From Antedon mediterranea (taxonomy: Eukaryota; Animalia; Echinodermata), in the NCBI RefSeq assembly GCF_964355755.1, contig NC_092671.1, positions 34,358,304 to 34,422,303 on the forward strand: a stretch of 64,000 bases of DNA, in the 5' to 3' direction. The translations under genes and the position numbers were made by a program. This document shows, piece by piece, positions 20,359 through 44,600 of the stretch (its first letter is position 1; every line of letters begins with the position of its first letter). The notes under the pieces were generated by a model. The model was not told the origin of the DNA and made no database searches. It saw only the letters and a list, made by a program, of their open reading frames with translations.

Positions 20359-21420
20359 TTATGGATGTCGCCTGTGGTTTATAGACTTATTCTTGAGAAA
20401 CGGGCTCTGTTTAAAAAAGCTCGTAGAGTAAGCAGTACTTTGGCTTGGAATAAATACAAATGTATACGAAATAAAGTACGCAACGCGTCTAAGAAAGCAT
20501 ACAGTGACTCCATTTACCAATCTGTTTAGAAAGAAAGATAACCGGAAGTCATTTTGGTCTTTTATAAAAAGCAAGCGAAATTCATCTCAACTCATTGACT
20601 CCTTGTGGTTAATGGCATTACCATAAGACACCCTACTCAAATCGCCAACGAGTTCAACAAGTTGTTTGTGAGTTTTTTTACTGACTCCCCTAATTATAAC
20701 CTTGACCTTTTAGTATCGTGTGCACGCGCAAAAAAACATCGAACATCGACTTATAACTATACGTACATAATAGTAAGCCAACAACCACACAGTAGAAGCA
20801 ACAATGATATAACATGGCCTTGGCCTTGAAGTATCGTGCACGCGCGCAGCAAATAACAAATATCGTCTTGAACTATTACGTTCATTAAACAAACGAGTTA
20901 ACGTGCAAATATCGCGCGCATGAGCAGCAAATTATAATAATCCAACGCGCTAACCACGACCCTAACAGACGTATCGTGAACAAACAATTATTGAAACAAC
21001 TCAATACAATCATGATATAATGTAGTACCTCGATCAAAATTGTTTGAGTCTAGCATTAAATTTGATCTGATTTATTTTTTTACATTTGTGGCCGAAAAAT
21101 TCTCATTTTTTTTTTACATTTGTGGGCGTTATCACATTTGTGGGCGATGATCGTTTTCACATTTGTGGGCGCTGTTTATTACATTTGTGGTTGATGCGTT
21201 TTCACATTTGTGGGTGATGCGTTTTCACATTTGTGGTTGTTTTCACATTTGTGGGTGATGCGTTTTCACATTTGTGGTTGTTTTCACATTTGTGGGCGTT
21301 TTTACATTTGTGGGTTCAACAGCCTCACTTCACCAACTTTGGACATTCCATCTCTTGCCGGTTTTCGTGTTTCACGTTGTCAGGTGGAATCTTTTATCAA
21401 AAACTTCGCAGCTAATAAAG
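20359..21420 (+). mobile_element. CR1-type LINE ORF2 fragment (pre-RT region), interrupted; continues at 44073-44156
   Basis: Reads LFKKARR...WNKYKCIRNKV...KSFWSFIKSKR...IANEFNKLFVSFFT and FRVSRCQVESFIKNFAANK, then resumes after the giant transposon as ASDPDGVSVRMLKLACPVIIPAITHIF. Confidence 0.8.
21080..21320. repeat. Subterminal ACATTTGTGG repeat array of an inserted DNA element (insert about 20700-21320)
   Basis: About 10 copies of (C/T)ACATTTGTGG at 18-33 bp spacing, ending GGGTTCAACA (rc TGTTGAACCC). The insert interrupts the CR1 ORF. Confidence 0.6.
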
Positions 21421-22836
21421 CACCCGATTCTGTAACTGTTACCATGTATATATATGGTTCACCGTTGCGCAGTTGTCAAGCATGTACATGGATACTGTCT
21501 GTCATTGGTCACCAGTGACGAAAGTTATCAAGTACATGCATGATGATATTGCTCTTGTTGCATGTTGTTATAATACAATCGCATTAGAGCGCTGCTGACG
21601 TCAGACAGCTACCAGTTAGCAGACGGATTTTGTGTACGGAGTTTATGTAATGTTAAATTTTTTTTTAAATATTTACACAACAAATTCAAAATTCCACGTT
21701 TACATTTTTAATTTATATATCTAGTATATTTTTTTGTTAAAGGATCACATTTTTATAGGTAAAAAAAGTGACGTAAAATAGTTCGTGGCAGGTGGGGGCT
21801 TAGCCTGCTGCGTCACACACTCTCTTGGCCCAACTAGGCCTGAATTTGAAGGGTGCTGGTCAATTCGTACCAGAACCAACTACTACCCATTTAATTGCCA
21901 ACCCGGCGAATTCGGGCGTCGTACCCAAATGTTAGGTCTTACTTTGGCTAGCATAGGCTATCCCCCACCCGCTAATTACAAGCCGCCTAGGCCTGGAAGT
22001 ACAGTATCTAGGCTAGTAGTAGGGGATAGTAGGCTAGGCCAGGGCTAATACTCTAGCTAGGGGAGGTCCCTCTGGACATACCCGGCCGCGACAGTAGGCA
22101 TAGTGGTGTGGGTACTTTCGTTGCCATTTTCCGGGCGGGGGTGGGGTGTACTATAGTATAGGCATGTTAGGCCAGCTAGCATACCCACTCCATTTCGTAA
22201 TTAATAGTCATACATACCTGCAAAAGACCCACGGCGCGTAAGCAACAATTTCCTAGGTGCGGATGCAATTTCTTCGGTGCCTATTGCAGTTTGAGACCAC
22301 TTGATTCTCATACCATCATACATTGTTTTTTAAATGTTTTAGAATGGCATCGAAGACCTTGCATGATTATTTATTAGACCAAGATGTACAGTATGTATGG
22401 TGCGTCATAACGTTATCTTTTCTATAAATGTTCCAATAAAATAATATTTAGCATGGCACTTAATTACGCTGTTATTTGGTCTTTGCTTCTCCTCCACCCA
22501 CAATCATAAATTATGTTAGCATTAACTTATTGGTTGCTAAAATAGTAGATAGTAGTACAGTAGTACCAAACTACATGTAACAATTGAGGGAATAAACAGA
22601 AAGAAAGAAGAAAATACCAAACTGCCTGTTCTTGTCATCTTGTATTTTATGTACTCAAATGGCAGAAATAAAAAGTAAGTCATTAAAGTTGCCATTAAAA
22701 AAAAATAAATGTACAGTACCAGTTTAAAAAGATAACTTATGCATATACTTAATAATCAGGGGCGGACGCAGGGATGTTGCCCCAGTTGCCCGGGCAACAC
22801 CCATAATTTCATACTAAATGTTTTTTTCTGCCACTA

Positions 22837-23153
22837 GTGAGTGAGTGGCCGAGCGGTTAAGACAGTGGAACCGTAATCACGTAGCCATAACATCGGCAGG
22901 GGTTCGAGGCTCACTCACTCCATGGTTCTGGTGGTAGAACGAGTCTTCTCGGATAAGGACTATAAACCGTAGGTCCAGTGTACACAACTTGCTCGTGTGC
23001 ACTTTAAAGAACCTAGTACATCTTTGGAGACGAGTAGGGGGTTACCCCGGTGTAGTAGTACATCACAGCCACTGATCACCAACTGGGCCCTCTGGGAGAT
23101 CAGTCTTTGACTGAAGAGGTCACCCAGTATAAAGATAAAACAAACAAATAAAC
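22837..23153 (+). mobile_element. tRNA-derived SINE with Deu/Nin-like core
   Basis: A box TGGCCGAGCGG and B box GGTTCGAGGCT. Core TCGGATAAGGACTATAAACCGTAGGTCC...TTAAAGAACC...GAGTAGGGGGTTACCCCGG resembles the Deu domain. (AAAC)n tail. Confidence 0.8.
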
Positions 23154-24129
23154 TAAAATTTAGATCCCACTTCATCATAGGCATATATTAACCATATTAA
23201 CGTCGTTATAGAAGTCCATTGTTGGAAGTCTATGTAAATTGACTGACTGCAGCGTAAAATTAACCGCGCACAATTAACGACGGTCAGTGGATTTTTTTTT
23301 TCATTTCTCTACGACCGTAAAATTAGGGCGAATTTCCGTAGTAATTTACAAACCTGTGGCGTAAATGCTTGGTTTCTATTATGGCCCTGGACTCTTGGGC
23401 AACCCTCTTAAAATAGTCATGCCACCACCCCTGATAATTACCTATTGGGTCTAGGCTTGTTGTCACCTGGAATTTTGCCACTTGGCCTTTAGCAACCCAA
23501 AATATTGCTACCTGGCCTAAAAATCCAGGTGGCAACGTGCCAGAACCTGACTACTAAATGCAAACTAATGTCGAGAACTTGTGTGTTCAGTTAACTGCAA
23601 ATAGTCTCAACGCAGAAGATCATTGTCTTAATTACTCAGTATTGGTTTATATTTTGATACTTTTTTGTGTGACATTAGTATTGTTATGTTTCGTACACGC
23701 TAAAGACACTACAACAGTACACTGGTACAATAGACACGACTCAGTCAGGTGTGGATTCCAAGTGAACGAGGCATTTATTAACAACAGCCTATTATACTAT
23801 TCTACCCACAATATCAATGCGCGTAGACCAATCACCCATGTCTTAATACACGACAAGTATAATACTGGTAACTGGTTGTAAAGTTAAACATAAAAGACAC
23901 TTTCCCTGCAATTGTTGACGTTTTGTAAAAAATATGCATATACTGTATATTACTTTAAAAAAGTTGTATAGGCCTAGTTGGTAAACAGCGGTAACATACG
24001 AACATCGTACGCTTCAGATCTTCACTGCTTAAAAATGGAAGAAAATTATTGTAATAGGCCAGTATAGTATTTAATTTAACATGAAAAGCAGCTTAAAATA
24101 GATGAAAAAAAAACAAAAAAAATGTAAAT

Positions 24130-27100
24130 TTAAATCCTCAAATGTTCTGGAACATTTGCTTCTGGCTCCCAGGTAAGTTTTTTGAAGCCAACCCACTTTA
24201 CTTGGTACATAAATTGTCCTTTCTTCTTTTTCTTTTTTAATATTTTTTCAAATGCATAAAATCCTGAAAAAAAAAAAGAAGCAATTTTTACAAGCATGAA
24301 AATAAGTTAAACAAACTGTGTCTCCAAAACAATATTTGATTATTATCAGGGTTGTAATTATTATGTCTCTGCATCTTACCTTCTTTCAACTCAGTTTTCT
24401 TACTGGTATGCCCAATCTCCGAACAAATGTTTGCTAAATCTGTATTTTTTTCTGGGAAAAAAAACAGTTAAGCATTAATTGTTAAAAAAACATTTTCTTG
24501 GGGTTCCCTACTCTCTAATTTGAATGTATGTGCTATTGCTACAGTATTTAAAAAATGTATTTGAATTTAATTATGCACAAGGACACTTTATTGAGTAAAA
24601 ACTTAGTCTAGTGTATATTGTTGTGTTAAGGTCAATTAACTGTCAAATAATTTTTTTAATTTTATTTTTTTTAAAGCACTATAACACTGTATTGCTCATA
24701 GGTCATTCCATATCCTGTCACGTCTTTAACACAATTGTATTCATTGTATGTGTTGCTGTTTTAAATTTAAGTAGGTTTGCTAAATGTGTTACTCACCAAA
24801 ATCAATTAAAACTTCGTGAGGCCTAATGGTACCTTCAATTTCAGCTGTGGAAGAATTATGTTCATTGTGAAGAATATCACAAAGAAAAGTAAATACTGTA
24901 TAAACATTTTGATTCACACTAAATACACATTTTTAATGTATCAACAAATATAACATCAAATATCAAGTAAATGATGTTTAACTTACCATCAGCAATAACT
25001 GTTTCATTTTCTGTTACTGTGGATGAATAAATTGCAATAAATTTATATTTTATTCAATGACTATATCATATAATAGACTCGAACACCTTTCTACAACAAA
25101 TTGTTTGGTTGCATTAAATATCAAGTAAATGATGTTTAACTTACCATCAGCAAGAACTGTTTCATTGTCTGTTGCTGTGGATGAATAAATTGCAATAAAT
25201 TATATTGTATTCAATTACTATATCATATAATAGACTCGAACACCTTTCTACAACAAATTGTTTGGTTGCATTAAATATCAAGTAAATGATGTTTAACTTA
25301 CCATCAGCAAGAACAGTTTCATTTTCTGTTACTGTGGATGAATAAATTGCAATAAATTTATATTTTATTCAATGACTATATCATATAATAGACTCGAACA
25401 CCTTTCTACAACAAATTGTTTGGTTGCATTAAATATCAAGTAAATGATGTTTAACTTACCATCAGCAAGAACAGTTTCATTTTCTGTTGCTGTGGATGAA
25501 TAAATTGCAATAAATTATATTGTATTCAATATGCAGATGTAGTTTATAGTGAAATACAGTAGTACTGTTTACCTATATTATTTAAGAAAACAGTTGTGTG
25601 CCTTAATATACTATATATTAACCATGCACAAAATGTTAAATTAGATACTGACTATAGAATTTCAAATTCAAAGATATTGTAGATCTCTTAGATTTAAATA
25701 TCATCCAAAAAACTACTTTCTGTCATGACTGCAGATGATTAATTGACATACACTAGAATTGCAAAATTAATTTTCACAAAACCAAAATCTGAAAGGCCTC
25801 TAAATGTTTATTAATTACTGTAAATGTTCTTAAGCGATTAATGTTTGCTTTTTTTACAAATGGAGGTACAAGTTAGGTGGCATGCTGATTAATGAAGGTA
25901 AACTGTGGTATGAAATAGTTTGATAATTCGAAAGTTGGATATCATTGATGCATGCGACTGTGTGTCAGTCAAATTTTCTGAAACACATTTATTTTAGTTA
26001 AAACTTGCCTTCAAATTTAAGGTGATTGCTCTTTTCAATAATGCTTTCAAGTTCTTGGTAAGTGTACCTTCCTATTGGCTTAAAGCCAATAGGATCGAGG
26101 CCACAAACCCGCCACTTTCCGTTCATCACCTCCTTGTAAGGCACCCTATCTTTCCCTGATGCTTGTTCTGAAAAAACATCCCAGAGTTTAACAATTTAGA
26201 GTGAAGTGTAAATTTGTAATAATGAGTGTACATATAAATTATTAATACAGTAATAGTTTGATAAAAACTCTAGATGATTGGTATAGACATAGGATACTTT
26301 ATTTGTCAAAAATGTAATATTTTTTAAAAGATAAGATGTTAAAATACATTTAAAATTCTTGTAAGAAAATATTAAAATACATTAAATTAAATATGAAAAT
26401 TGCAATATTCAAAATACTGTGGATATCGCATTAATAATATAAAATAATTTAAAATACGTTTGACTTTGATAACATTTTTGATTCAAAACATCCTTTATTT
26501 TTAAAAATTGTGAACTTACTGAATTTGTTATTTAACAGCTCCTGCACTTCTCGTCTGAGCTTTTTCTTCTTATTTACTTGTGTTGCATTTGGACCTGTAT
26601 GGATTAAAATCAGATTGTAAGCATAAATATAAATCATGTTTTTACAGTATGTACTTGGACTACTGTGTTTAACACCATTCATTAATATATGATATAATAT
26701 AAGTGTCAGATCAGAGTGTACTGTATTTAATAAAGCAGTCATGTTACAATTATTATTTAAAAAATCTTTTTGTATTTAACATTCTGTGTTTCATCAATTA
26801 TTTAGGTAAGTTGAATATCTTGGTTGAAGTTATTTATTCTCATTATTTTATATACCCGTAGATATATAATTATTTTACTTACCATTACTAAACGATAAGA
26901 ACTTGGTTGTAAGCTGCTCCCGCTCCATGAAATAATTACCCTCCTCTGACCCAAAGGAGAATATTGTGTCGTTGTTTGGATGCAAAATAACAGCAATACA
27001 CTGGCATCCAAGGTTCACCATTTCTTGTATCTATGTACATTGTCATAAATATAATTATTGTTGGTAATTAGTACACAAAAGAACAGAAATACACATGTCT

Positions 27101-29147
27101 CGACTGGCCTTATTAACTGTACAAAAGATAATAAAAATAAAACATTTACTATGAAAAATATAAAGTAAAATCAATATTACACTATCTATAATTAGATAAA
27201 AAAAAAAATTATAGCAAATTTAAAATTTCTTGATTAGCAACATTTCATTATAAAACGTATGCATGGTTTGATTTTTCCGTTGTAAATCTGCTACAATGCT
27301 TACTTTTGTCAAATTTATGATGAAAGAGGTAATTTTAATTAAAATAATATTAATTTTTTTCCAATTTTAAAGTCTTTATATAAAACTATATTTAAAATGT
27401 TGTAAAAATGGTGCAGTCAATTCTAAATAAGTTTAACTTGCATTGAAAGAAGTTACACATTTTCAATTTATTGTATATAAACTTGATTTTTGCATCAAAT
27501 TTAAGTTTGTTATCGATTTGATCATCTAAATGCTTGTATGTTTTAACTTCTGATAACCTTTAATTGGGGAAGCAAGTACTTATATTAAAAAGCCAAGCAA
27601 TGCACATTGCAGGAAAATTAATTTTACTAACTTTCTTTTCAATTTCCTTGGTTTTTCGTGCTATTGCAATTTTATTCTGGCCTTCTGTCATTTGCGATGG
27701 TGTTGTTGGCAGTGGCAAAGCCAGTCTTGCCCGTTCTTCATAACTGGCAGATTCATTGGACTGTTTTAGTTCCTGCCACTTTTTTAGGCCACTCACACGA
27801 CAATCGGTATAAGTTCTGCCTTTGTCGAGTTCTAATGAAATACATAAAATATATTAATTTGATATAATATAAGTTTAAACTTTTACGGGTATATCATGGG
27901 ATTTTATCTGGCTCTTTTCTATTGTATGTCCATTTCATGTATGTACAGTATTTTGCCAAATCAAATCATACTATTACAATCTATATTCACCTTCCTTTAT
28001 GTGTTCAGACATGAACAGCTGGTGGCCCGTTTGTTTTCTTATTCTTAACTTTTCCTTGCAAGGACGTTTTTTTCCGGACAATTTTTTTTTGTAGTTGCCA
28101 ATCCAATCCTATAAGAACATAATATAATATATAGTATTAATTGTTTTCCTTTTGTTCTATTTCAAATTCTAATAATAATCGTTATACTCTATACAAAAAA
28201 CTAGATACAGCTTGAATATATTATTACAAAACAAACTCAATATTTTATAAACAATTGTAATATATTTTTTTTTATAAAAGTGGAACACACAGATCACCGA
28301 TTCACCAAACTAAATCAAAGGCCTTTTGGATGAGTTTTGAGCTTTTGGCATGAGTGTTGGTGATTATGTTTGTTGAAACTACAATCATTTTAAAACAATC
28401 AGTAGCAATAAAAAAATAAAAATTACTTATTTAACCTCTCTATTAAGCATTCCAGAAAAACGATCAACAATAAAAAAAAGCATTTATAGACATAAATGGC
28501 ATTAATAATATGATTAAGAGACATATTACATTATAATTATCCTACTTACTTTTACCTGTTCTTCCAACAAACCAGTTTTTTCAACTGCTTTTGCTAGTAA
28601 CACCTTCTGTCTGTCACTCCTATAACTTGACATACCCTTCTCATATAAAGCAATGAGAACCGATTTGTTTTTATCTCCAATTTGCCTTCGGCTTCGCTTA
28701 GTACACCTAGACCTAGGCAGAAGGTAGAAGTAGTAGTGTATACACTTTAATTAAAAGAATGCCTAGCTAGGCCTAGTAAGTAGTATTAATATAACCATGG
28801 AGTAAAGATTACTCCAGGCATGATATAACTATTTTTTACAAATATATAAATATAAGGCCTAGGCTAGGTCTACATTGAAAATTGTTCATAATAATAATAT
28901 AGTGTTTGTCATCAATTCAAGATGACATAGGCCTAGGCTACACTACAACACGTGCTGCTGCTTTATAGATTGTGTCACAGTGTATTTTAATAGAGCATTT
29001 TTAGGGTGTAAAATGAATGGTCGTTTTTATGTATAAATGTCTGAGCCTTGACTCTATAAATAGATAGTACTAGGCCTAGGGCCTAGCCTATGCTATGATT
29101 ATCTAGGCTAGTAGGCCTAGCGATACCTACCTTTCAATCTCATTCAT
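24130..29147 (-). CDS. Transposon accessory protein: homeodomain-like + HMG-box-like + C-terminal chromodomain, about 417 aa, 14 exons
   Basis: Exons 29147-29131, 28712-28550, 28108-27991, 27831-27632, 27030-26883, 26594-26520, 26167-26009 (GC donor), four 30-nt exons, 24844-24797, 24451-24380, 24263-24130. They total 1254 nt with no internal stop. Motifs KTGLLEEQVKDWIGNYKKK; RKQTGHQLFMSE...KKWQELK...YEERA; YAFEKILKKKKKKGQFMYQVKWVGFKKLTWEPEANV. Confidence 0.85.
24950..25530 (-). repeat. Tandem 157-158 bp repeat, each unit carrying a 30-nt coding micro-exon
   Basis: Exons 25489-25460, 25331-25302, 25174-25145 and 25016-24987, each CCACAG|(A/V)T(E/D)NETV(L/I)AD|GTAAGT. Confidence 0.85.
28796..28822. 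mobile_element. P-like excision footprint
   Basis: CATGGAGTAAAGATTACTCCA(GGC)ATG flanked by the 7-bp direct repeat ATATAAC. Confidence 0.6.
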
Positions 29148-29527
29148 TGAAAAACAAGGTGATGTGTATAATAAGTGTAAAAATCTGTAAAATTCGTAGA
29201 AAATAATTATTCTGTACTAAAGTAACTCTTGTGTGTGGTAGCTGTTTGTGTAACAATTGTTTAACTGGGTGTTTAGTGGCTTCTCTCAGAGTGCTGAAGT
29301 GACGGCAGATAAAGATATAGGGCCTAGGCGCGCCAGGTGTAAGATATCATCCTCCTGTCATCCATCAATCCATCATCCATCCCCACCGTACCACCCAAGG
29401 CCCATACCATAGTTTTGTAGAGCTAGTGTGTAAAGAGGGCGCTTTCCGAATGACAAGTTTCCAAGTTTCCACCAATTAAATTGTCGCGTTGCGCCCCTAG
29501 CTAGCTAGCATCATGCATGCAGCTTAA

Positions 29528-29811
29528 GCCGATTTTCCACTAGGCGAATTTGTTCGCGCGAATCGAACGCGCCAGCTTGTACGCATGTGTATTCATGTTT
29601 ACGTCTTCCAAATCCTTCTCTACGCATGCGTATTAGCTGACGCCTTCGATTCGCGCGAACAAATTCGCCCAGTGGAAAATCGGCTTAAGCCGATTTTCCA
29701 CTGGGCGAATTTGTTCGCGCGAATCGAAGGCGTCAGCTAATACGCATGCGTAGAGAAGGATTTGGAAGACGTAAACATGAATACACATGCGTACAAGCTG
29801 GCGCGTTCGAT
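29528..29811. mobile_element. Two inverted copies of a ~160-bp MITE forming a palindrome
   Basis: GCCGATTTTCCACT..GCGAATTTGTTCGCGCGAATCGAA TIRs with TTAA flanks. The second, inverted copy starts at 29689 and is cut at about 29811. Confidence 0.8.
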
Positions 29812-29813
29812 AA

Positions 29814-29996
29814 AGCGTGGTTCCCACTAGCGACGCAACACAAGGACGTAACGCAACGCAAGTGAATTGACCAATCACAAGCGATGGCTTATTCGCTTGT
29901 GATTGCTAACTGTCTATAACTAACTTCGCTTGTCATTGGTTAAAACGCTTGCGTTGCGTTTACGTCCTTGCGTTACGTTCTAGTGAGAACCAAGCT
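29814..29996. mobile_element. PIF/Harbinger-like MITE
   Basis: TIR AGCGTGGTTCCCACTAG / CTAGTGAGAACCAAGCT with TAA on both sides; internally palindromic. Confidence 0.7.
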
Positions 29997-30644
29997 TAAG
30001 ATAGATAGATAGATAGATAGCTAGCTAGCTCATCATGGAGGTATCTATTTTTATACCTCCATTGCTAGCTGATGATTCTCCCCAACTGAGATGTATAATA
30101 TTGATATTGTAATTTACTTTTTGGAAATATTTCCTTTTTCATTTTAAATATTTTATCCTTCACAGCACCAAGATTAGAAGAGATGTGCCACGTCAGTATC
30201 AAAGTACATACTGTACTCTTTTTTTATTCGTATTGATGAATTGCCACCCAACCAATAGGCCTACATGGATATTGTAAAATACATCTAACAATAACAGACA
30301 GATCCATCTATCTCTTAGTCTTATAAATAGATGTATCTCAGCTCTCCAAACTACTGCTGCTATAAATTCCCAATTGACAATGACATACTGTGCAGGGGGT
30401 TTGGAAAGGCTTCAATATAATTAGCGATGGCCTACTGCTACTGTACACTGTCAACATTGTCATTAGACAAGAAATGGAGGCACAGTTTATCCACCAGAGG
30501 GCTGGTGCTAATACAATCTATCATCCTCTCACTAGTAATGTATCAACCAGGGCTAGGCCTAGACTATTCCAGTAATTTAAAGGGGTTGCATTTAAATGAA
30601 AATGTTTAAAAAAAGATAACATTTTAGTAATTATTAAAATTAAC

Positions 30645-33600
30645 CCATTTTGTAGATATCAAATTTCATTTGGTATTGATTGTAGGATTTTCACAACTTA
30701 TTTTGCTTGTTCTAGTTGGGCACACTATATTATGTGTTATTGTATATTTTTTACAGAATGAGATGGTCCAGTGTAATATGAGTCAGTTGTTTATTTGTAC
30801 AATATGCAGGAGAGATCTGAGGCTAGAGAAGAACCAGTTTTCTGCTGATACCATTCATTTATATAAACAAACCAATGTTTTCCTAATATTGAACTACAAC
30901 AGACAAAGGAATGATTAACATAAGGGTTTTACAATACATTAGGCTGTATTTTATTGAAAAATCCACTTAAAATTGTTTTTAAAACATCTTCATAATGAAT
31001 GACAACATGATGTAGCCTACTTTTTTACAATCACAAAAGGCATTGGATTTGTGAGACCTAATAATTGAAGAAAAATGTTTATTGGGAATATTTTTTATTA
31101 TAAGGCTAATATTACAAATATGGTGGTATTTAATGTTGCCAAACTATGTATTAGTGTAATGTGTTATAATAAAAATAAATACTATATAAATCACATTAAA
31201 ATAAATAAATACAATATCAAACGCCTGGCACAGAATAAATTCTAAATCGCCTGATACTGAAAATTTGTTAATTAAACTTGATAAGATGAGAAACACTGAC
31301 GAGATCTAATAAGATCGAAACAGTACTGTCTGCAGATTGGATATATACAGTTTAGAATTTGTTTTGAGTTTTATATATAATAAATAATTGAAAAAGCAAA
31401 TGTATTGTACGTATATGAATGTGGGTGTGTAGTGTACATGTACCGTATAGTATGTATTTTATATTAAAGTATACAATGTCCCTACACTGATCCTATATGG
31501 TTTTGGTTGGTCATGCAAATCATCTACAAACCAACTTATACTGTACTAATTATGTTACAGTAAGTAATGTGATGTATTAGGCCTAGTCACGTATTAAAAA
31601 ATCATAATGCATGAAATAATGCTAATATTGTTTGATGAAAAGGTGGGAAAAAGTGTTTAATAACATTGTTATGATATAAATAATAAAAAAATATGATATA
31701 AATATGACCATATTATCTTTATATTGACTATTTTTGATAATCATACCCCTTTAAAGTCATTTGTATTTCAACCTATATTATTTCTTTTGTATTAATATAG
31801 TGTATGTTATGTATTGTTTGTCTTGTTACATTTTGTTAATGTTATGTATTCTTATTATCTGCCTAACCAATATTAGTAATAATAGTTTATATATATATAT
31901 ATGTATATATATATAAACAATTCAGGCAAAGAACATTAATTCTAAACCGCCCGGTGATAAACTGAAATTTTAATTAATTAATTTGAAATATGTATATATT
32001 AATATGTATATATATATATATATATATATAACTTTCTTTCGCAAATAAAATGTATTATAAAAAATCTAATATAAAATGTCAGACCAGCTAAGTATTGCGT
32101 TTCAATTGCATTTTTTTTTTTAGTATAGGCGAATTATATATCTTTTTCTCTAAACAAGTGAATGATACCACATTTAGAATTAAGGTTTCTGTGTATGCAT
32201 TACCAAAATAGTAATTATATTTCAATGCACTTCTGCTTTTTGTTTTAAGATTTTTAAATGATTATTAACTATACATTAAATGGCAGGTTTTTAAAAAAAA
32301 AACGTTTTAAAAGTTAATTGTAGTATTTTGGTCCAGGATGAGGTGAAGTGTGTGTGTGGCACCAGAATTATTTTTTTCTGAAGAAAAGAAGTAAGCAGAT
32401 TCGCTCCAAACAATAGGATTCACATACAAAATCATTATTTTTCCAATATACATAGTATAACAGTATACTTACAGTACATAAGGTAAACTCGAGCAGAAGA
32501 ATAACACACATAAAAACCATATTCATTTTTTCGTCGAAAAGTGCCCTCTCTAGTTTCATATTAATAAATTAACTATTAATAAAAAAATTAATGGGTAATA
32601 TGAACATATTTTAAACATTAATGGTGGAAATTGGCTCTACTCCTAACAAAGCTTCATATCACCGAAATTCAACAACGTAGTCAACGCACTTCAATAAATA
32701 TCACAATTTAACAATCGTAATTTGGGAGGGCTGGATTTTGGTTAAAATCATATACAAAAAACATCGAGAAAAAATATTTTTCGTATTCAAAAACATTTGA
32801 AACTTCGTATATATGTTCAATATAGGTTGCTCTATCCACAGAAAATATTGCATACCCAACAGTAGTTTTTTTATGTTTTTTTTTTCTACAAAACCGTCAT
32901 GAAGTCGGAAAAATGAGTTGGAATTGTATGTACTTTCTTAAGTGCAAATTTTGTAACAACGTAAATTATAAAAATCGATTAAATGACTTGCTATTGATTT
33001 TCTTTTACATTATGGATGAAGTAACCTATATTGAACATATATACCAGGTTTCAAATGTTTTAGAATACGAAAAGTATTTTTTCTCGATGTTTTTTGTATA
33101 TGATTTTTAACCAAAATCCAGCCCTCCCAAATTACGATTGTTAAATTGTGATATTTATTTAAGTGCGTTGACTACGTTGTTGAATTTCGGTGATATGAAG
33201 CTTTGTTAGGAGTAGAGCCAACTTCCACCATTAAATGTTTAAAATATGTTCATATTACCCATTAATTTTTAATTAATAATTAATTTATTAATATGAAACT
33301 AGAGAGGGCACTTTTCGACGAGAAAATGAATATGGTTTTTATGTGTGTTATTCTTCTGCTCGAATTTACCTTATGTACTGTAAGTATACTGTTATACTGT
33401 GTACAGTAGGCCTGTATTGGAAAAACAATGATTTGTGTATCTTCTTGGGATTTGTTTGAAAGCGAATACTACACTTCTTTTCTTCAGAAAACATCTCATT
33501 TTACCAACAAACCCCAACCTCCAACACACCAGACCCTCCTGAAATCTACATAGTACATTATAAGCCAAATTAACCGTTTTAACTTTTTTTTTATTAAAAC

Positions 33601-34725
33601 CAATCTGCCTCAAGAATATATATATTTTTTATAAACAAATCAGGCAAAAGAACAGTAAACCATAATTACAATAATAAATAATAACATAAAGATTGATAGG
33701 AATTGTAAGTAATATTAATGAAATTAAAGTGCATTAGTTTAAAAAATAAAACCAAAAAAACTTAACTACCCTTCATTTGAATAAATCCCCCGGGGCTGTT
33801 TATTCGAGGGAGGGAGAAGGAACGTTTATGCAAAATTATGTTCTTTGGGAGGGGGAGGGGAGGATGGGGTTGTTATATGAAGAAGGCTTTTATTCAAAGC
33901 AGTCAATTAAAAAAAGTTCAGTCATATAAATATAATGTTAACTACTATTTTGGTAATGCATACACATGATAGAATTATGTTCAGAAATCTAAATTCTAAA
34001 TGTGGCATCATTAACTTGTTTAGAGAAAAAAATTATAATTGATGGGCTACACACAAAAAAAATGCAATAAATACTTACAATTATTATTAATATTTGTTAT
34101 ATAGGCAAAAAATATATAAATAATAATACTTAACATTAACACAATTATTTAACAAGTTAAGTACCGGTAATACTGTACATAACACTGAACTATAATACCA
34201 AAGGAATATATGAGTTAAATAAAATACAATGGATTTCAACGGCTATGATTATCCAAACATTTTTTTATATATAAAAATAGCACATTATAGTTCGGCAACA
34301 TTTATTTTTTGGTTAGATAACAAACCGTATTTGGAAATAGGCTATAACAAAAGATGTTGCAGATGTTGTAAAACCAATTTTAAGTGGGGTTTTCAGATAC
34401 ATTACACAAAGACAATTATTGTACTAAATCATGATTTTAATAATGCATTTATTAGTTATCAACCTTGACGTTAATATTAGGAAAACATTGGTTTGTTTAT
34501 ATAAATGATCAATGATATCAGCAGAAAACTGGTTCTTCTCTAGCCTCAGATCATTCCTCCTGCATATTGTATAAATAAACAACTGACTCATAAACACTGG
34601 GCCATCTCATTCTGTAAAAAATATACAATAACACATATAATATTGGGCCCTACTTGAACAAGCAAAATAAGTTCTGAAAATCCTACAATCAATACCGAAT
34701 GAACACAAATCACCAAAATGGATTA
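30645..34725. repeat. About 4.1-kb imperfect inverted repeat (foldback) centred near 32925
   Basis: Arm pairs about 30645-30890/34472-34725, 31700-31870/34080-34260, 32095-32220/33940-34070 and 32370-32830/33020-33490 (innermost near-identical). Confidence 0.85.
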
Positions 34726-35203
34726 ATATTATTAAATTACAAAATATTTCAATGTCAAACTGTTATTGATTAAGCGTAATATTAATACTGGGGTTTTTTT
34801 TATCTACTGTACAAATCAATGTAGAATTGCATTACAACTAAACAATACAAATTTTCAATTTTGTAAAACAAAAAAATGTTTAATCATTGTATGTATACGA
34901 AGAAGTAATGTGTTGTTTAATAAACATTGTTAATAATTTGGTTGAGTATCTAAAAAATAACTTGACAAGCAAAATGCTGTTTGTGAGTTACTGTGATTTT
35001 ACACCAGTGGATTTTATTGCCCAGTGTCATTTGAGCCATATGTTGTAACTACAGTACAAGTCTGACCCATCAAGAGGTTGGTCTAACTGAAATACCTTGA
35101 ATAAGCCTCTTAAGTTTGACCTTGATGACCCTTGAAAGCTACCAAGAATTCCCAATGGTTTAAGCATATTTTAAAAAAGGTTTATAAATGAAGTTACACT
35201 AAG

Positions 35204-35231
35204 CATGGAGGTATAAAATAATACCTCCATG
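35204..35231. mobile_element. P-like excision footprint
   Basis: CATGGAGGTAT...ATACCTCCATG flanked by the 7-bp direct repeat CACTAAG. Confidence 0.7.
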
Positions 35232-36372
35232 CACTAAGCCTACCTACCATAATATAACATTTAATCAAAGAAATTAGAACAATGTAGTATAATTTGGGAT
35301 TTAAATGATGTAAAATAGATGAAGAAAATAAAACTATGAATAGGCAATTTTGATGATTAATAAGTATTCACTTTCAGTTTCTTTAAGGTGATAATTAGGC
35401 AGTGAATTTGTCCATATATTGTACCATAACATTTAATCTAATTACAAGGTTTAAGTAAAGGTGAAAAACTACTGTTATGGCAGAAAAATTGTACCATGTA
35501 AAGAGACAGCCCTACCAACAACAATAAAAATAACTATTCTTAGATTAACAGGTATAATATAAAGCAAATTATAGGCCTCCATTATATATACTTTCAACAT
35601 TTTTTACCACAATCGCTGTAAAAGTATGTTATAGATGAAAATGAAATTAACACTATAAAAATATATAATAATGTTCTTTTGTGTCTCACTCGCTCCTTTT
35701 CTTTCATGTCATTTTTCAAATTAATATTATAAATTATTTGTCATATGCCTACTGTACTGTAAATCATTGGCATCACAATAATCTGAATCATTTGATCTCT
35801 TTCATTTTTTATCAAATAAAAAGATATTGTATTATAAAGCAATTCTAAAAACATATTTTAATAATAATAATATACTGTACTTTATTTTCACATGGAAACA
35901 CTTGAATCACCCAATGGTGTTTTTCATCAAGGCCATACAAGCCCATACATAAGTACAGAAAATTAGCAAAATGAATAAAAGAGAAAAAAATAAACATAAA
36001 GGGTAAACTAAACCCCACCGGACACCAACCCGGTATTTTTAAACAATGTTTCGGGATAACAATTAACACAAAATTTATGTATTTAAACTTAATTTAAAAA
36101 TATTGACATTAGAAATACATTTAAGATTATCTGGAAGGTTATTCCAAAGCTTACTAGCATGAAATGATAGACTTTCAACATTTTTTACGACAAAATCACA
36201 TCAAAAGTATAGTGCTGTAGATGAAAATACAATTAACACTATAAAAATATCATAATGAACATAGAATTACAGTATGAAAAGGTAATATCCATTAATACAC
36301 CCAATAATAAGTATGTAGTAATAATTGCAATGATTATTGTTCCTTTTTAACCTTGTTAAATGTAAAGGCATT

Positions 36373-36620
36373 TGTAAGGAAGAGATGGCAAAAAGAGAGA
36401 TGTTTTTGTTGTCTGTGAAGAAGAAATATTTTGGTAAAACAGACTTTGTAAACAAGTAAATCGTGCAAGCAAAACCATAAAGTATAATGCTTGTAGTAAA
36501 CAAAGTGTTATGTTATACTTTACTATATTTTATTTGAATTTTAAAATTTAGCTATGCAGTATATCATTCAATAAGAAGAGGCAAATCTTAATTAGTGAGG
36601 AGATAACCCTAGACCTAAAG
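36373..36620 (+). repeat. Inverted, multiply deleted copy of the 3' part of the KDZ transposase gene
   Basis: Pieces match the reverse complement of about 38310-38157, 37864-37776 and 37552-37365, in colinear order, including intron sequence. Confidence 0.85.
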
Positions 36621-37068
36621 ACTAACAATAATATGACAACCCATTTATTGATGTTGTATAATATAAATACACGCAATATAAATATATAGAGTACCAAGGT
36701 CCTGTAGGCTTATACTCTTCATACATAATTGCAAAAAATAAGTCGATTCTAATAATTTTAGCATCCCGCTATAAATCCCAACATACATTTCGCGCGGATT
36801 GATATTAATAATAATAATTTACCATAAAACGGACATTTAAAACAAGGAACGACCTGGATTAATGTTTTTAAAGTAATATATATGCATTATTTTTACAAAA
36901 CGTCACAAATTGTAGGGAATGGGTCTTTAAGGAAAAAAAATTATCGCAATAGCCCATATGTTATTATGCTGTTTAGTTTTATTAAAACATGATAAAGCAA
37001 CTTTAAAAAACATTAACCAAACCTGGACGCATGTGCATGACTTGATGTAACACCAATATCTTTACAGG

Positions 37069-40000
37069 TTATTGTATATTATCACTTTCAACTCCATCAG
37101 AGGAACTAGCAATACTTTCAAAATCAGATTCATTCTCTGAATTACTTGTGTCAGAAAGCAGGGATTCTTCACTGCTGGAAGAATATAAGTCTGAATAGAA
37201 TGATTTATTTAATTCAGTCAAGTAGAAAGATGGAAGCATTGGTAAATCTATGTATTCCCTGAACAAATTTGAAAATTGAATAAGATTGTCTTCAATCTTC
37301 ATTAATTCGTTGGTGACTTGGGCAATCTTTCCACAAGATCCTGTTGTTTTAAGTAGTTTTACTTTGATGTCTAGGGCTTCGTGCTTCGCTATACAATGGT
37401 CAATGACCGACTGCATTTCAATCTTTACTAGGGTTATCTCCTCTTCTGCCCTGCTCTTTAAATCATTATTAGTTAAGATTTGTCTCTTCTTATTGAATGA
37501 TATACTGCATAGCTAAATTTTAAAATTCAAATAAAATATAGTAAAGTATAATATAACTAGAAATTACAAATGGATTCTTATTATTACTATTAATTATATA
37601 AAGTAAAATGTGATTTTAATTTTAAAATATTTGGTGTTTACTGTACATAACCATAACCGGTAGTTTATTCTAATTAAGTGATTATTGTTAAACAGTATTT
37701 CAACCTCATATTTACCTCAGATGCTGTTGCATTGTTGTAAAACATTCCATTAGGATCTTTAATATATGCAAATACGACACTTTGTTTACTACAAGCATTA
37801 TACTTGGAAAGTAGGCCCCTTAAGTTTTTGCTTGCACGGTTTACTTGTTTACAAAGTCTGTTTGCCACAGCTTGACCATCTAAATTGTAAAACAAAATTG
37901 TATTTTAATTGTAATACTCATTTTCACCTATATTGTGTAATCTAAATAATAACCCACTGCTCAATCAATAATCAACAAATTCCTTTAAATTTAACTATCT
38001 GAGGTTAAAAAGTAAAATGTTATTTTGGATATTGCACGGTAGTAGAAAAAAAGTAAAGGACCAAAGAAATTATAGGTCAATTAGTACACTTTTCCAACAT
38101 AATCAGCTGACAAATTGGATTTGAGTATAATAAAGTATGTTTGTGTATTATTTCAGTTTTTACCACAATATTTCTTCTTCACAGATAACAAAAACATCCG
38201 TTCTTGTGCGCATGCCTTCATTTTTCCTTTGATGTTTTCGATTTTCTTATTTGACATGGATATTTCAGCAGCTTTGAATTCCATCCCATCACTCTTCCAT
38301 CTCTTCCTTACATTATTCTCCTTCTCCATAGAAGAGACTGCATCCTCCATGCTGAAAGTATAAATTGTAGAGATAATTGAATGATCTTTACTTTTTTATG
38401 TGTCAAACACACTCAATATAATAAACAATACAACATACCTTTTGTATACATCTTGAAATTCTGAATCGGTAGTTGTCATACTTTGCCTAAACAAGAAAAA
38501 TAATTTATTTTGTCTAATTAATTTGGCAACATTTCCAAGATAATTCGAAAATTAAAATAATGTTCCAATCAACTTTTATGCACACACTCACAAACACACA
38601 CTCTTTAAAAAAACTCTTTGACTACTAAAGACTAGGCAATTTTGTGGATTATGCATGAAATACATACTGTACGTTAAAAACAACTTAAAAAAGCATACCT
38701 GAGCTGGGAAAGACTTTTCAGTTTAGATACATATTTTTCTTTCCAATTAGCTGAAAAGATTAACAATTATATATTATACAAACATAATATAATACCTTTA
38801 TTTCTGTTTAGAAACAAATTTAATATTTTTTTTGGTAAAAAACATACAGTACATAAGAGCAATTAAAAAGATTACAATAACATATCCTATATTTAAAGTC
38901 ATACCCTTATCTATCTGGACATTTGAACTCAATGCCATCTTTTCATCCTCCTTCCATTGCTCAATTACTTCAGGTGTAACATCTGTTGAAAACAATATGT
39001 ACACTGTTATGACCATGAAGTAGTCATGTATTTAATTTAGTATTTCATATTAATAAAACAAATAATAATTTCACTAAATAAGTTTTTACCTGTGGCTACA
39101 CTTCCTTTTTGTAAATTCAGCTCCTTTACTGCTTCATTTAACACATTAGATGCCTTTTTAAATTTCTTTAGTAACATGTTACCTGTGTTTGATCAAAAGA
39201 ATCAATAATAAATTAATGCAAAATGTTTTAACATTCTTATGAATTCTTATGAATGTAGAAGTAATATAGTATACATACCAATATTTTGTCGTTTCCGGCC
39301 AGAATAATGTAACAATGCATCCGTCAGCAAGTCAACTCTGTGTGATGGTGCCATTTCCTTGGTAATTTTTGAAAAATTCCGCAGGTATGACCAAAGACGT
39401 TCGATTCCCTCCCCATCAGTAAGACCAAAACCATTCAAACGTCGAGGGTTGTATAATACCTACGTTATAAGAAATTTCTGTTAAAAAATATTTTGTTTTT
39501 TTCTTGTGTTATTGTGTTAATAGATTGGTTGATTTACCTGACATGAACTTTTATGACCATAGCAATGGAAAATAGGTATTGCCATATCAACATTTCTTAA
39601 AAGTTGATCTTGCTTCTTCTGTAAAATGAAAACATACAAATATATTATATACATAGCAATTTTAACAAGGTCAGAGTTATTTAACAAAAATTAGTATAAA
39701 TTGTAAAAATACATGCCCAACTACTATGATCAGAAGATTTGAGTATATCCTGTTGTCTACTTTAAAATTTCATATATTATAATTACATTAACAACAATCA
39801 ATATAAAAAACAACTGACCTTAAGGTGTGATGATAAAACACATGCAATATCATAAGTCAAAAGCAGCCTTTGGTCCTTCACACATGCTTCATTGTACAGC
39901 TTTTGTAGTAGGAGCATCGGGTAGCCAAGTCTAAATAGAAGAAAGTTGTTTAAAATGTAAAGTAACTGAGAAAAGATATATTGAAAATTCTTAATGATTA

Positions 40001-42542
40001 CTTTTAGTAATTTCAGTAGCACTAGGTAGAGCAACACAATTGTATTTCTAAGAGAAAAAAAATATATTAAATATAGTCCAAAACTAATAGTGGTAAAAAA
40101 TAAAATACTTATTTACATTATATTCGCAGCCACAGTCTGCCCAAAATGTATTGCGTTGTACAATCTTGCCAAATTTTTTTTTATATTCAAGTTTAAGGCA
40201 AAATAAAGGGTAGCATTGTCGGTTGCTTCTTTTTCCACTATAGATCACCTCATGACGGTGCATAACATAGTGCTGTTTTGTTGCATTCACCGATTTTACT
40301 ATGCTATACTAGGTTTTTAGGTTCCGGCACCCGGACAAATTTTAGGACAGGTTAAAATTTTGTTCTCTGCATTAATACATGGCTACCATGGCAACTGGGA
40401 ACATAGTGTAAACATAGCATGAGATTTAAACACACCTTTCTCCATACCGCATGTTTATAAATTTGATGGGAAGTTCATGTCGACAAACGCTACCAAAAAC
40501 ACCAGTTACATCCATTTTGGTTTTTTTTGATCTGGATCGAAGGAGGTTAGCAGCTTTAAAATTATTACATTCCTGTACACAAAAGTATAACATGTGATAA
40601 AAAATTGGTTCAGTTATGTATATATCAAGTCAAAGTAGTTATAGCTCTATCTACTGTACCTGTTTTTTTGTATGGTCATTGTAGTTTTCGACAAATTGAT
40701 TGGATTCTTCATCTTCCAAGAAAAATTTTGTTTTGTACCTTGGTGGCTCCAAACTTTTTCCTGCCTTCCTCCTTCTAATAAGACCAAAATTTGCATCCAT
40801 GGAAATAACTTTTGTTCCTTTACCCTAAGAAAAAAATTCTACATGTAATTAAAATCAATTTATTTAAATAAAAGCAATTGAGTTGTAATTTAAACAAAGT
40901 ATTATTAATAAAAGTGCGTACCTTAGGACAAGCATAACACAATGTACCATCATCTATTGCTTCATCTGGCGTAGTAAGTTTGTAATAGGCATGGTGAAAT
41001 TCGAATAGAGTTTCTTTTTTAGCCAAAAGTTTTAATTTGTTGGCCTACCAAATGGAAACAGCAAAAAATAGCAATTAAAATTAATATTATGAACTACTAT
41101 GAATTAATTGTATGAACTTTGAAAATTAGCACAAAAGAACACTTTACCTCAAAATCCTTTAAGTGATTTGTTTGAATAATCGCTTCACAGAAGGATTTAG
41201 ATGAAACATGGCACTCAAGTTTACAGGTTCTCATCAGTTTCAAAAGGTCTAATGAGTAACCCACAGTAATGTTTGTAGATGTTGCTGGCCAAAGGTGGCA
41301 ATGTAAAAAAAAGGTATATTCTGGTTGGCACGAACAAATTTCAATTTGCAATTGATGGCATCGACCTAAAGATTAATAATTATGTAATATTATTATCAAT
41401 AATACAATTTTAAAAGGTTTCATACATTCGACATTAATCAAATATATATGATAGTACAGTAATCACATTTACATAGCAATTTAGAACTGTGTTTTACTAT
41501 ATAACCAATTTGGTTAGAGTAAAACACAATGATATAGAATAGGAAACATTTAATAATAATGATAAATGACATTTACATAGCAATTTAGCACTGTGTTTTA
41601 CTAGTATAACCAATTTGTTTCATACATTCAATATTAGTCAAATATATATGATAGTACAGTAACCAAAATAATCATTTGTGGCATACTGTATTAAAATGAA
41701 AATGTGTACAATACAAATTACCTTTAGCATCAAAAACAGTGACATATTTCAGCAATTTTACACCACAATCAACATGGTTTGAGTATATGGTCTTTATGGT
41801 GTCAGATTCATATCGGACAAATGTACCAACCTAAAATTAGGAAAAAACAAATTGAACATTTTAAGGTTTTTATATTTTGTTTTGTTATTTGCATATAATT
41901 TTTTTGCAAAACTTTACGCTAGTCGTAACTATTTCCACTTAGAAAGTACAAATTATTTAATTTTAATTTGTATTCACATGTATACCCTGCAAAAATAATA
42001 AAATTATTAGTTCATTCCAATTATGCGAAAGTAGATTTATTGTCAGCATTGTTTTTTTTAGTTTCTTTCTGTTTAAATGTAGAAAAAAAAGTGCCACCTA
42101 CTTTCCAAACCTCGGGTACATGCAATATCCTAAATCTGTGGGCTTCTTCAATGCATTTGTTGCAAAAGTATATACAAGGACCACAGTCTAAACATCTGTA
42201 AACCTGTTCCAAAGAAGATTTTTGGCATTGACAGCATTTAGCATTGTGCAGAGGGATCAATGTTTCCAATAGTGCTACATCAATCCCATCTCTAGCATTT
42301 TGCCACGCCTCGATCTCTCTTTGTTTTTCAGCATAATGTTTACTAGGGCCAGTGTTAGTACTAGTAGACGCTTGAGGGTGTTCTTCATCTGTTACTGGTA
42401 AATCTATGGGTACATGTATGCGACATTGTGGTTGTGGAATGTTTGTAGGCCTAGGCCTATTGCCACTAAGGTATACCCTTCTCGAACGAGATCTACTCGT
42501 GGTAGTTCTCACTCTTACAAAAAGCCGTTTTGATTTAACCAT
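37069..42542 (-). CDS. KDZ (Kyakuja-Dileera-Zisupton) transposase with N-terminal CxC cysteine cluster, about 16 exons
   Basis: Exon 1 is 42542-42102 (CCQC...YRCLDCGPCIYFCNKC...H...H). Later motifs: CSC...LWPAT, CYACPK, SMDANF, CNNFKA, TGVFGSVCRHE, NMRYGER, YDIAC, PIFHCYGHKSSCQ, GFGLTDGEGIERLWS. Acidic tail and stop at 37069. No stop seen in the exons I translated (1-10 checked in full). Confidence 0.9.
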
Positions 42543-42769
42543 ACTAGAAAAAAAAAGATTATTATTAGTTAGACCATGTGAGAAATTTTGGGAGAAAGCA
42601 TAGTGGCATGCTGTTAGATTACTATGATGGGTCATTTTAATATCAGGGCAATAGCCAATACACGTCCATGCAACTCTGGAAATCTCGGAAACAAAAACAG
42701 GCCTCTCATCGCCGATCGGTGTGTTTTTCCAGAAAATTTTCTTCACACTATTATTATTATTATGCAAAC

Positions 42770-43640
42770 CTGGTTACCTAGCTCCTAGCTAGGCCTAGAA
42801 CTTTGGTTAGGCCTACCTAGGCCAACATTTTTGCAGGGTGTTTTTTTTTTTGGGTACGAGTCATCAAAATAAAATGTGGGTACGAGTCAGCTAAAATAAA
42901 ATTGAGGTGCTGGTCTAGGGCTAAGCCTAGCTAGGCTAGCTTATTCCCCCCTACTAGGCCTACGTACGAGTTGGAATGGTCGATGATGATGGGCCGGCCG
43001 GGTACACGGGTTGATCTAGCCTGGCCCTAGGCATGGGCCGGAACCTCTAGGCCTAGTTATAGTATATAAAGTAGGGCCTACTACTACTAGCTACTAGGCT
43101 AGGGCGGCTAGGCCTACTAACTAGCTAGCTAGTAGGCCTAGTGCTATAGTAGGCCTAGTAGTAGGCCCTTCTAGTCTAGCTAGTAGGCTAGGCCTGCCTT
43201 TTAGGCCTACTAGCCTAGGCTTGGCCTAGCTAGCTAGGGCCTACATCCTCAGTCTAGCTAGCCTAACTAGTTAGTCTAGGCCTACTACTAGCTAGTAGGG
43301 CCTATAGCCTACCCTACTCTTCTAGGCGCACCTAGCCTAGACCCCTAGCTAGGCCTAGTTAGGCTAACCCTGTGGCCCCTACCCTAGCCTAGCTAGGCCT
43401 AGCTAGGCTAGAGGCCTACCTAGGCCTAGCTAGGCCTACTAGCCTAGCTAGGGCCTAGGCCCTAGTTTAGGTAGTAGACTACTTCTCCCTAACCGAGTGC
43501 TGGCAGTAAAACACTTACTTTGTAGCCTGACTAGCTAGGCCTGCCTTTATAGCGTATCCAAGGCCCTACACGGTGGTGTATGTAGGCTTGTATTGTAGCT
43601 AGTAAGCAGTAGTAGGCCTAGGCCTAGGCCTAGTGTAGAG
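42770..43640. repeat. Low-complexity CTAG/AGGCCT-rich tract upstream of the transposase
   Basis: Dense irregular TAGGCCTA, CTAG and TAGTAG motifs; similar tracts at about 220-360, 14465-14625, 21945-22060 and 29070-29120. Confidence 0.85.
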
Positions 43641-44152
43641 TAGTAGTAGAGCGTGCCGGAGCGTGCCATGCATCGTGTCCCATCATAGCGACCCCTGCGA
43701 CCACATAGGAAAATTTGCGATAATGCGCATGCTCAAATCACCATAAATATTTGAAATTATTATGACTTTTTGATAACTAAAAAATATATAATTTACTTTA
43801 AAAAAATATATTCTATACTTGCTTAAAATTCAATATTTATAAAGTTTTTAAAAACTATTTTAATAAACTCTTAAAATACATTAGCGTTTATTCACAATGG
43901 CGAAACATCGTCTGCTATTGGTTCTGGACGACTATGTTTAATACACAGGACAAGTATGTACTTAATAACTTTCGTCACTGGTGACCAATGACAGACAGTA
44001 TCCATGTACATGCTTGACAACTGCGCAACGGTGAACCATATATATACATGGTAACAGTTACAGAATCGGGTGAATAAAGCTTCTGATCCTGATGGTGTGA
44101 GTGTTCGGATGCTTAAACTCGCTTGTCCGGTAATTATTCCGGCTATCACACA

Positions 44153-44600
44153 TTTTTAGTCGCGTGGACGCGACTCTATAGTTCACTATGTCGGTCGGTC
44201 TCTCGGTCTGTCGGTCTCTCTGTCGGTCCGGTATCACTATGCGTTTTATCGCTTTTCTGTACTTTTTTAACTGTTTTGATGTACAGACAATTAGTCGCGT
44301 GGGTGGACGCGACTCTATAGTTCACTATGTCGGTCGGTCTGTCTGTCTGTCGGTCTGTCTGTCGGTCCGGTATCACTATGCGTTTTATCGCTTTTCTGTA
44401 CTTTTTGAACTGTTTTGATGTAGAGACAATTAGTCGCGTGGGTGGACGCGACTCTATAGTTCACTGTCGGTCGGTCTGTCGGTCTGTCTGTTGGTGCGGT
44501 ATCACTAAGCGTTTTATCGCTTTTCTGTACTTTTTGAACTGTTTTGATGTACAGACAATTAGTCGCGTGGACGCGACTTATGACTGTTGGCCTTGTTTTT
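44153..44600. mobile_element. HINE-like element with three tandem ~135-140 bp head units
   Basis: AGTCGCGTGG(GTGG)ACGCGACT starts at about 44158, 44293, 44432 and 44561, with (GTCY)n between; ends GGCCTTGTTTTT. Confidence 0.75.

Follow-up and report, generated by a model that had tools for sequence, protein, structure and literature searches.

The 64,000-nucleotide stretch analysed here (the window; contig NC_092671.1, positions 34,358,304 to 34,422,303, assembly GCF_964355755.1) comes from the crinoid Antedon mediterranea and carries, at window positions 21421-44072, a transposon of 22,652 bp (22.65 kb) with two genes. With a probability of roughly 0.8, we regard it as a complete two-gene transposon of the KDZ group that likely moves by cut-and-paste: gene 1 encodes the transposase, and gene 2, a conserved part of the element, is predicted to provide a dimeric helper that binds DNA and chromatin. 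The element is a real, well-bounded KDZ transposon and represents a two-gene variant that is apparently undescribed. In the literature covered, with most subscription papers, Repbase and Dfam outside that coverage, we found no description of the KDZ/helper pairing or of a transposon origin of the GTF2I I-repeat; the same negative holds for the accessible parts of 10.1101/2024.08.15.608186, 10.1101/2025.05.19.654958, PMC9297572, PMC10546077, PMC12062965, PMC8700633, PMC12428995 and 10.1101/2020.06.13.149070.

Ends and insertion site of the element

The element is bounded by two terminal inverted repeats (TIRs) of 117 bp (Table 1), which are 99.1% identical and differ solely at TIR position 109. 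Directly outside them stands a 7-bp target site duplication (TSD), AATAAAG, for which the chance of a match at a fixed site is ~9e-5 given the local base composition. Both the repeats with their single mismatch and the 7-bp duplication had been proposed in a first-pass annotation of this DNA, and both are upheld. Contigs from other insertions join at position 21421 (one further flank in each of two samples), a diverged copy in the sequencing reads terminates at 44072, and in related elements (two families, at metagenome loci) 7/7 of the left ends shown start with CACCCG, the preceding bases being different. An 8-bp TSD is formally possible, as a C follows on both sides, but it requires asymmetric ends; it is disfavoured because the TIR is perfect at the termini, the junctions of other copies lie at 21421 and the relatives begin with CACCCG after varying flanking bases.

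The target is a fragment of a long interspersed nuclear element (LINE). When 21321-21420 is joined to 44080-44152 with one heptamer kept, the resulting empty site gives a continuous frame of 57 codons, and uninterrupted homologues with a single copy of the heptamer are found in 4/4 sequencing runs, in contigs matching the left flank; these may be paralogues of the target rather than an orthologous empty allele. The first-pass annotation had described a CR1 second open reading frame (ORF2) running straight across this site. The uninterrupted frame stands, while the target is a piece of ~180 bp with other repeats on both sides and not a whole ORF2. The putative CR1 label depends on a motif, KASDPDG, through which the joined frame reads and which in ORF2 of LINEs precedes the domain for reverse transcriptase; the empty-site peptide gave no match to three reverse-transcriptase-containing proteins.

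The two genes and their recurrence

Both genes lie on the minus strand, are open throughout and have canonical splice sites with one exception in gene 2, in agreement with the two co-oriented, intact-looking multi-intron genes reported in the first-pass annotation, which had left gene 2 unidentified. For gene 1, the reading frame crosses 16 exons without a stop, with GT-AG introns. Its product comprises an N-terminal Cys/His cluster, a CxC1/CxC2 region, a catalytic core (D307, D425, E479/E482) and a long helical C-terminus. In a Pfam scan of 13/16 exons (three short exons were left out), five consecutive exons match KDZ (PF18758) collinearly over profile positions 4-213 of 217, two of them exceeding the cut-off of 26.6 with 34.4 and 43.7 bits. 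Exon 3 matches CxC2 at 28.1 bits (cut-off 27) and CxC1 at 25.4 bits; full-length homologues mostly favour CxC1 (2/3, plus one match favouring CxC1 in P0035). No SWIM or CxC4/CxC7 domain was detected in the 13 exons scanned or in 4 homologues. The motifs SMDANF, YDIAC, HCYGH and DGEGIER lie at aa 305, 424, 453 and 477. The D, D and E motifs are conserved among homologues and, together with the KDZ and CxC matches, support the KDZ identity that had been assigned from the D/D/E motifs and the CxC cluster.

A search with exon 9 returned 59 proteins, headed by those of the crinoid Anneissia (80-82%) and followed by those of ribbon worm, amphioxus, corals, mussels, sea star and teleosts. Full-length homologues align over the entire gene 1 model at 31-36% identity, the model scores 838 bits against the homologue profile, and the profile search collected 83 proteins, 13 of which are fungal or unnamed non-animal rows. 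For an amphioxus homologue with 53% identity in the core, the AlphaFold model matches DDE transposase/integrase cores over aa 310-543 with Z 8-9; the comparison with Tn5 gives Z 9.1 and a root-mean-square deviation of 6.0 over 223 aligned residues, and ISCth4 comes top in a separate comparison (E 0.019). These scores are middling but consistent with a predicted fold of the DDE type.

The product of gene 2 would combine a homeodomain, an HMG box, a MADS-like dimer domain, a single GTF2I I-repeat, a repeated acidic linker and a chromodomain. Residues 1-323 are identical to NCBI XP_071941110.1 from the same species, and the sole departure from canonical splice sites, a GC donor at intron 7 (26008), is shared by the NCBI model. 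The chromodomain is matched by Pfam at E 5e-8. An exhaustive search returned 81 proteins; among the 80 others, GTF2I is found in 62 and Chromo in 14, with Homeodomain or HMG in many, and with our own domain profiles, built from 36 of the 81 proteins, all four N-terminal domains are recognised in 40/81. Fungal Kyakuja elements may carry an HMG-domain gene as well. Unnamed clusters with the gene 2 architecture are present in the ESM Atlas for cnidarians, molluscs and chordates. Four tandem units of ~157 bp (24954-25530) each give the gene one 30-bp in-frame mini-exon; a related copy, P0092, has five of these peptide repeats.

A structure model of gene 2, with a predicted local distance difference test (pLDDT) value of 84, finds its best matches in GTF2I domains (Z 11.9 and 9.7), followed by homeodomains (Z 8.4) and HMG boxes (Z 7.7); MEF2 turns up in weak rows of the Foldseek comparison. 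For residues 140-296 a homodimer is predicted, with a score of 0.68 versus 0.00 for the best control, pLDDT 80-81 and at least 85% agreement of contacts between runs; the mark used is reached by 17/29 eukaryotic dimers and by 0/30 monomers. The predicted contacts involve helix 152-170 and strands 173-184, a geometry that we take to be that of a MADS dimer. The homeodomain (28550-28712) weakly matches PDB 2da4 (E 0.78), presumably human HDX, and a coral homologue, P0149, bears the name 'highly divergent homeobox-like'; HDX may be a second derivative.

The two genes occur together well beyond the crinoid. In the soft coral Dendronephthya, a KDZ locus adjoins by RefSeq number in 10/18 listed gene 2 loci and lies 2-11 numbers off, on same-sized contigs, in a further 4/18. 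Branchiostoma belcheri has an adjacent pair (LOC109484857/LOC109484858). In amphioxus, domains of both genes, KDZ or CxC on the one side and GTF2I and/or Chromo on the other, are fused in three gene models. Our metagenome set holds 80 loci, including 15 intron-rich ones with 10 kb of sequence downstream of the transposase; 9/15 of these long loci have helper domains there, on the opposite strand in 9/9, and their left ends start with CACCCG where found. Both genes are also present on AT-rich (25-27% GC), compact-gene contigs that are possibly non-animal (L015, L055 and L056). One of these shows long inverted arrays of ~68-bp units at both edges (L015:1-12425), with a transposase of the same clade inside, an HMG/MADS-like/I-repeat-like gene and two open reading frames without Pfam matches. 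The gene pair thus persists across phyla despite varied orientation.

Several observations weigh against the picture of a complete element with a standing second gene. The TSD length is read from one copy, no related locus having both ends intact: a TIR/TSD search of the long metagenome loci yielded no complete element, and in a related element (L008:5117-22140) the left TIR is split by an insert of ~4.5 kb and the right TIR is without its last 7 bases. The NCBI model of gene 2 ends short of the chromodomain exons; the C-terminal exons are backed by P0092 (a close relative, 83%) and by an Anneissia homologue (P0061). The GTF2I match covers profile positions 1-72 of 75 at E 2.2e-4, with a score (21.9 bits) below the Pfam cut-off of 27; the I-repeat is also backed by PDB sequence and fold matches and by many homologues above the cut-off. 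The pass of the homodimer prediction may stem from likeness to solved MADS dimers. In the coral, 8/18 loci are without an adjacent partner, four of them without a near partner in lists that are incomplete, and RefSeq adjacency is one of accession numbering, not of DNA. Helper domains are missing from the 10 kb downstream in 6/15 long metagenome loci, and gene orientation varies, being tandem here and convergent or divergent elsewhere.

Lineage, proposed function and the link to TFII-I

In a tree of 38 KDZ rows, drawn without labelled Kyakuja or Zisupton proteins and with fungal rows unlabelled, 25 animal rows fall on one side of a branch (98/96) and gene 1 groups with Anneissia. The best fungal matches of gene 1 are Puccinia and Melampsora proteins, at 131 and 122 bits in the core and with E 7e-51 and 3e-61 in the profile search; the lowest score in these comparisons belongs to a single Trametes protein (62 bits). 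An assignment to an animal Kyakuja, which we had at first thought probable, was lowered since the rust-fungus proteins scored best against the transposase. With homologues widespread in animals and a clade of their own, our data support an under-described animal KDZ lineage, as the first-pass annotation had suggested; it extends from corals to teleosts, and exact ends are now given for it.

The comparison with named groups relies on the portions of PMC12730594 available to us, according to which Dileera is the main TET-associated KDZ group in Puccinia and Melampsora; Kyakuja has a 7-bp TSD and 5'-CA..TG-3' ends, with Kyakuja-1_LB and Kyakuja-2_LB (Laccaria) devoid of TIRs; and Zisupton and Dileera have TSDs of 8 bp. 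In Cryptococcus, as far as described in the parts at hand, the TIRs of KDZ1-3 measure 139-241 bp, further open reading frames are present, and the TSDs of KDZ2/3 are 4-8 bp, so TSD length is a weak marker of lineage. The present element resembles Dileera (Zisupton-1_PGr of Puccinia; Cryptococcus KDZ1-3) in its CxC1-type transposase and its best matches to rust fungi. It differs in its 7-bp rather than 8-bp TSD, in starting with CAC and not with GAC as two Puccinia elements do, in being without a TET/JBP gene, in the separate clade of the animal proteins and in its helper gene, which is not described in Dileera. With Kyakuja it shares the 7-bp TSD and CA..TG termini (one copy here) and a similar size (9-25 kb), in contrast to its 117-bp TIRs versus none in Kyakuja-1_LB/-2_LB, and to its lack of TET/JBP. 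With Zisupton (fish, nematode, Cryptococcus KDZx1) it has in common the KDZ catalytic domain, TIRs and a large multi-exon animal element; unlike Zisupton, with its 8-bp TSD and SWIM with CxC4 or CxC7 in the descriptions consulted, it has a 7-bp TSD and a separate helper gene. The terms 'HMG' and 'homeo' are nowhere mentioned in the available portions of PMC12730594. The same portions give 9.3-25.2 kb for 15 fungal Kyakuja-1 consensus sequences and 13.3 and 17.1 kb for two Dileera elements, and the description of our element as unusually large is not supported, its size being ordinary for KDZ.

With regard to mechanism, the transposase, of RNase H-like fold and with D307, D425 and E482 (or E479) as putative catalytic residues, would pair the CACCCG ends and insert the element with a 7-base stagger. 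We give an even chance to a helper that dimerises, binds and bends element DNA, reads methylated histones through its chromodomain and aids the assembly or the targeting of the transpososome. Dimerisation would occur via the MADS-like domain, while the homeodomain, the HMG box and the I-repeat would bind and bend the DNA of the element. The helper would then act as does the partner protein of the transposase in PIF/Harbinger or CACTA elements. PIF/Harbinger (transposase and Myb/SANT protein, described for Harbinger/Nuwa) and CACTA (TnpA/TnpD) likewise combine, between one pair of TIRs, a transposase with a distinct protein that binds DNA; the transposase is unrelated and the TSD length and helper domains differ, which confines the likeness to an analogy.

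It is possible, if less than probable, that gene 2 is instead a transcriptional or anti-silencing regulator, which would bind the promoters of the element or TIR-proximal DNA and activate or restrain transcription. All four folded domains of gene 2 are transcription-factor domains, and anti-silencing genes are carried by other transposons (PMC12730594, in part). In the L008 element, the helper begins with an exon that adjoins the right TIR, and the start of the transposase is ~300 bp away from the inner part of the split left TIR, a layout that suits end-driven promoters. Against such a regulator, gene 2 shows no activation domain, and a chromodomain is equally compatible with the targeting of insertions.

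TFII-I is a vertebrate family that includes Williams-Beuren-syndrome genes. Four of the proteins collected in the gene 2 search have five I-repeats (one is named GTF2IRD1), and the MADS-like profile, built from 36 helper-type proteins alone, matches the N-termini of 3/4 of these at 40.0, 37.6 and 32.9 bits, directly before the first I-repeat; the best of 500 shuffles reached 3.3 bits. The MADS-like domain and the I-repeat are common to the helper and GTF2IRD1 in the same order; therefore, TFII-I is likely derived from the helper. Domestication of a helper gene is favoured because helpers form a broad, multi-copy family tied to KDZ genes, whereas TFII-I is a vertebrate family. Hence, we think it fairly probable that the vertebrate TFII-I genes arose from the helper gene of such KDZ elements; the MADS-like domain and the I-repeat would have been kept, the repeat multiplied and the other domains lost. 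Gene 2 itself is a relative of TFII-I (GTF2I, GTF2IRD1, GTF2IRD2) and not a member: it has one repeat, extra domains and a place within a transposon, whereas the TFII-I genes are host genes, and the proteins of this type in our set, with five I-repeats, gave no homeodomain or HMG match. GTF2IRD2 has been tied to hAT through its C-terminal Charlie8 part, the I-repeat region being the non-transposon portion (PMC10641963, in the part available). A 993-residue Anneissia protein, P0067, unites four I-repeats with a homeodomain and with zinc fingers of the C2H2 type, which looks like a multiplication of the I-repeat independent of, and parallel to, that of TFII-I.

Two results speak against this derivation. 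The fourth five-repeat protein, P0137, shows no MADS-like match, and a tree of the MADS-like plus I-repeat module (59 rows), which places the three TFII-I-type rows together (100/100), has an unresolved, star-like backbone, is unrooted, did not settle in its bootstrap and gives no direction. Since the tree is unrooted and its backbone unresolved, the direction from transposon to TFII-I is one that we infer. The same star-like, unrooted tree would suit the reverse course, in which a KDZ element captured an ancient host gene with the MADS-like domain and the I-repeat and TFII-I stems from the host copy, and TET/JBP is a documented case of genes captured by KDZ elements (PMC12730594, in part). 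We nevertheless consider this unlikely: those invertebrate homologues that have names are patchily distributed, multi-copy and linked to KDZ genes, the pair is also on the possibly non-animal contigs L015, L055 and L056, and no single-copy invertebrate TFII-I orthologue is present among the 81 matches, 20 of which have names.

Interior, surroundings and significance

The element contains nested inserts and an inverted piece of its own transposase (Table 1). The shorter insert, which we take to be Harbinger-like, resembles a miniature inverted-repeat transposable element (MITE). A read-through transcript across the inverted piece could form a hairpin against transposase RNA. Comparison of the 7.9-kb spacer and of both subterminal regions with retrieved proteins, a weak test, gave no match that would point to a third gene, and no tRNA or Rfam family lies within the element. 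From its near-identical TIRs, two open genes and other insertions in the reads, a young and possibly autonomous element is plausible; the other junctions speak for past movement only. The reading of this copy as an inactive relic, or of gene 2 as a passenger of one lineage, is very improbable: the nested MITE-like inserts, the inverted transposase fragment and the few copies in reads, several of them diverged, would fit it, against both genes open over 30 exons, TIRs that differ at 1/117 bases and a pair that recurs across phyla.

Table 1. Positions of features in and around the transposon, in window coordinates
Feature	Position	Strand	Remark
LINE ORF2-like fragment (interrupted target), left part	21321..21420	+	
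TSD AATAAAG, left copy	21414..21420	+	directly outside the element
TIR, left, 117 bp, starts CACCCG	21421..21537	+	terminus shared by related elements
Gene 2, accessory protein, 417 aa, 14 exons	24130..29147	-	gene model, no stop
Gene 2 exons	29147-29131, 28712-28550, 28108-27991, 27831-27632, 27030-26883, 26594-26520, 26167-26009, 25489-25460, 25331-25302, 25174-25145, 25016-24987, 24844-24797, 24451-24380, 24263-24130	-	
Gene 2 domains (predicted)	homeodomain aa ~12-75, HMG box ~80-141, MADS-like dimer domain ~146-218, GTF2I I-repeat 227-293, repeated acidic linker, chromodomain ~374-416		
Nested MITE-like insert, TAA duplication	29814..29996		adjoins palindromic repeat 29522-29811
Nested TIR insert, TA duplication	32451..33401		highly repeated in reads
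Inverted, internally deleted copy of parts from transposase exons 14-16, including intron bases	36399..36594	+	79-97% identity, ~500 bp past stop codon
Gene 1, KDZ transposase, 877 aa, 16 exons	37069..42542	-	homologue alignment, Pfam per exon
Gene 1 exons	42542-42102, 41830-41722, 41365-41148, 41044-40922, 40824-40660, 40572-40436, 39930-39819, 39618-39538, 39459-39279, 39182-39090, 38982-38905, 38750-38699, 38486-38439, 38351-38164, 37879-37716, 37512-37069	-	
TIR, right, 117 bp, ends CGGGTG	43956..44072	-	diverged copy stops at same base
TSD AATAAAG, right copy	44073..44079	+	directly outside the element
LINE ORF2-like fragment, right part	44080..44152	+	multi-copy repeat cuts off at 44153

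Elsewhere in the window, a further TIR element (1894-6748) has arms of 528 bp at 98%, with subterminal repeats inside; no convincing TSD was found. The segments 10265-13415 and 58715-62282 are diverged copies of a ~3-kb sequence, 79-91% identical in blocks. A very high-copy repeat of ~139 bp with a microsatellite core occurs at 44153-44570, 18996-19134, 19637-19775 and 54931-54988; at the first of these it is tandem and truncates the LINE fragment.

Taken together, our results define a two-gene architecture, its ends exactly placed, for a KDZ clade of animals found from corals to teleosts, and provide an apparently intact element suitable for assay. Many invertebrate and fish proteins named 'GTF2IRD1-like', 'HDX-like' or HMG are likely transposon genes. 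On balance, we lean towards an undescribed, widespread KDZ lineage with CACCCG ends, a 7-bp TSD and a standing five-domain second gene, of which GTF2I, GTF2IRD1 and GTF2IRD2 are domesticated forms. If this is true, the origin of the I-repeat would be explained and the N-terminal dimerisation region of TFII-I would be a MADS-like fold; and if the direction holds, a human neurodevelopmental transcription factor family would have come from the accessory protein of a transposon, and not from its transposase.

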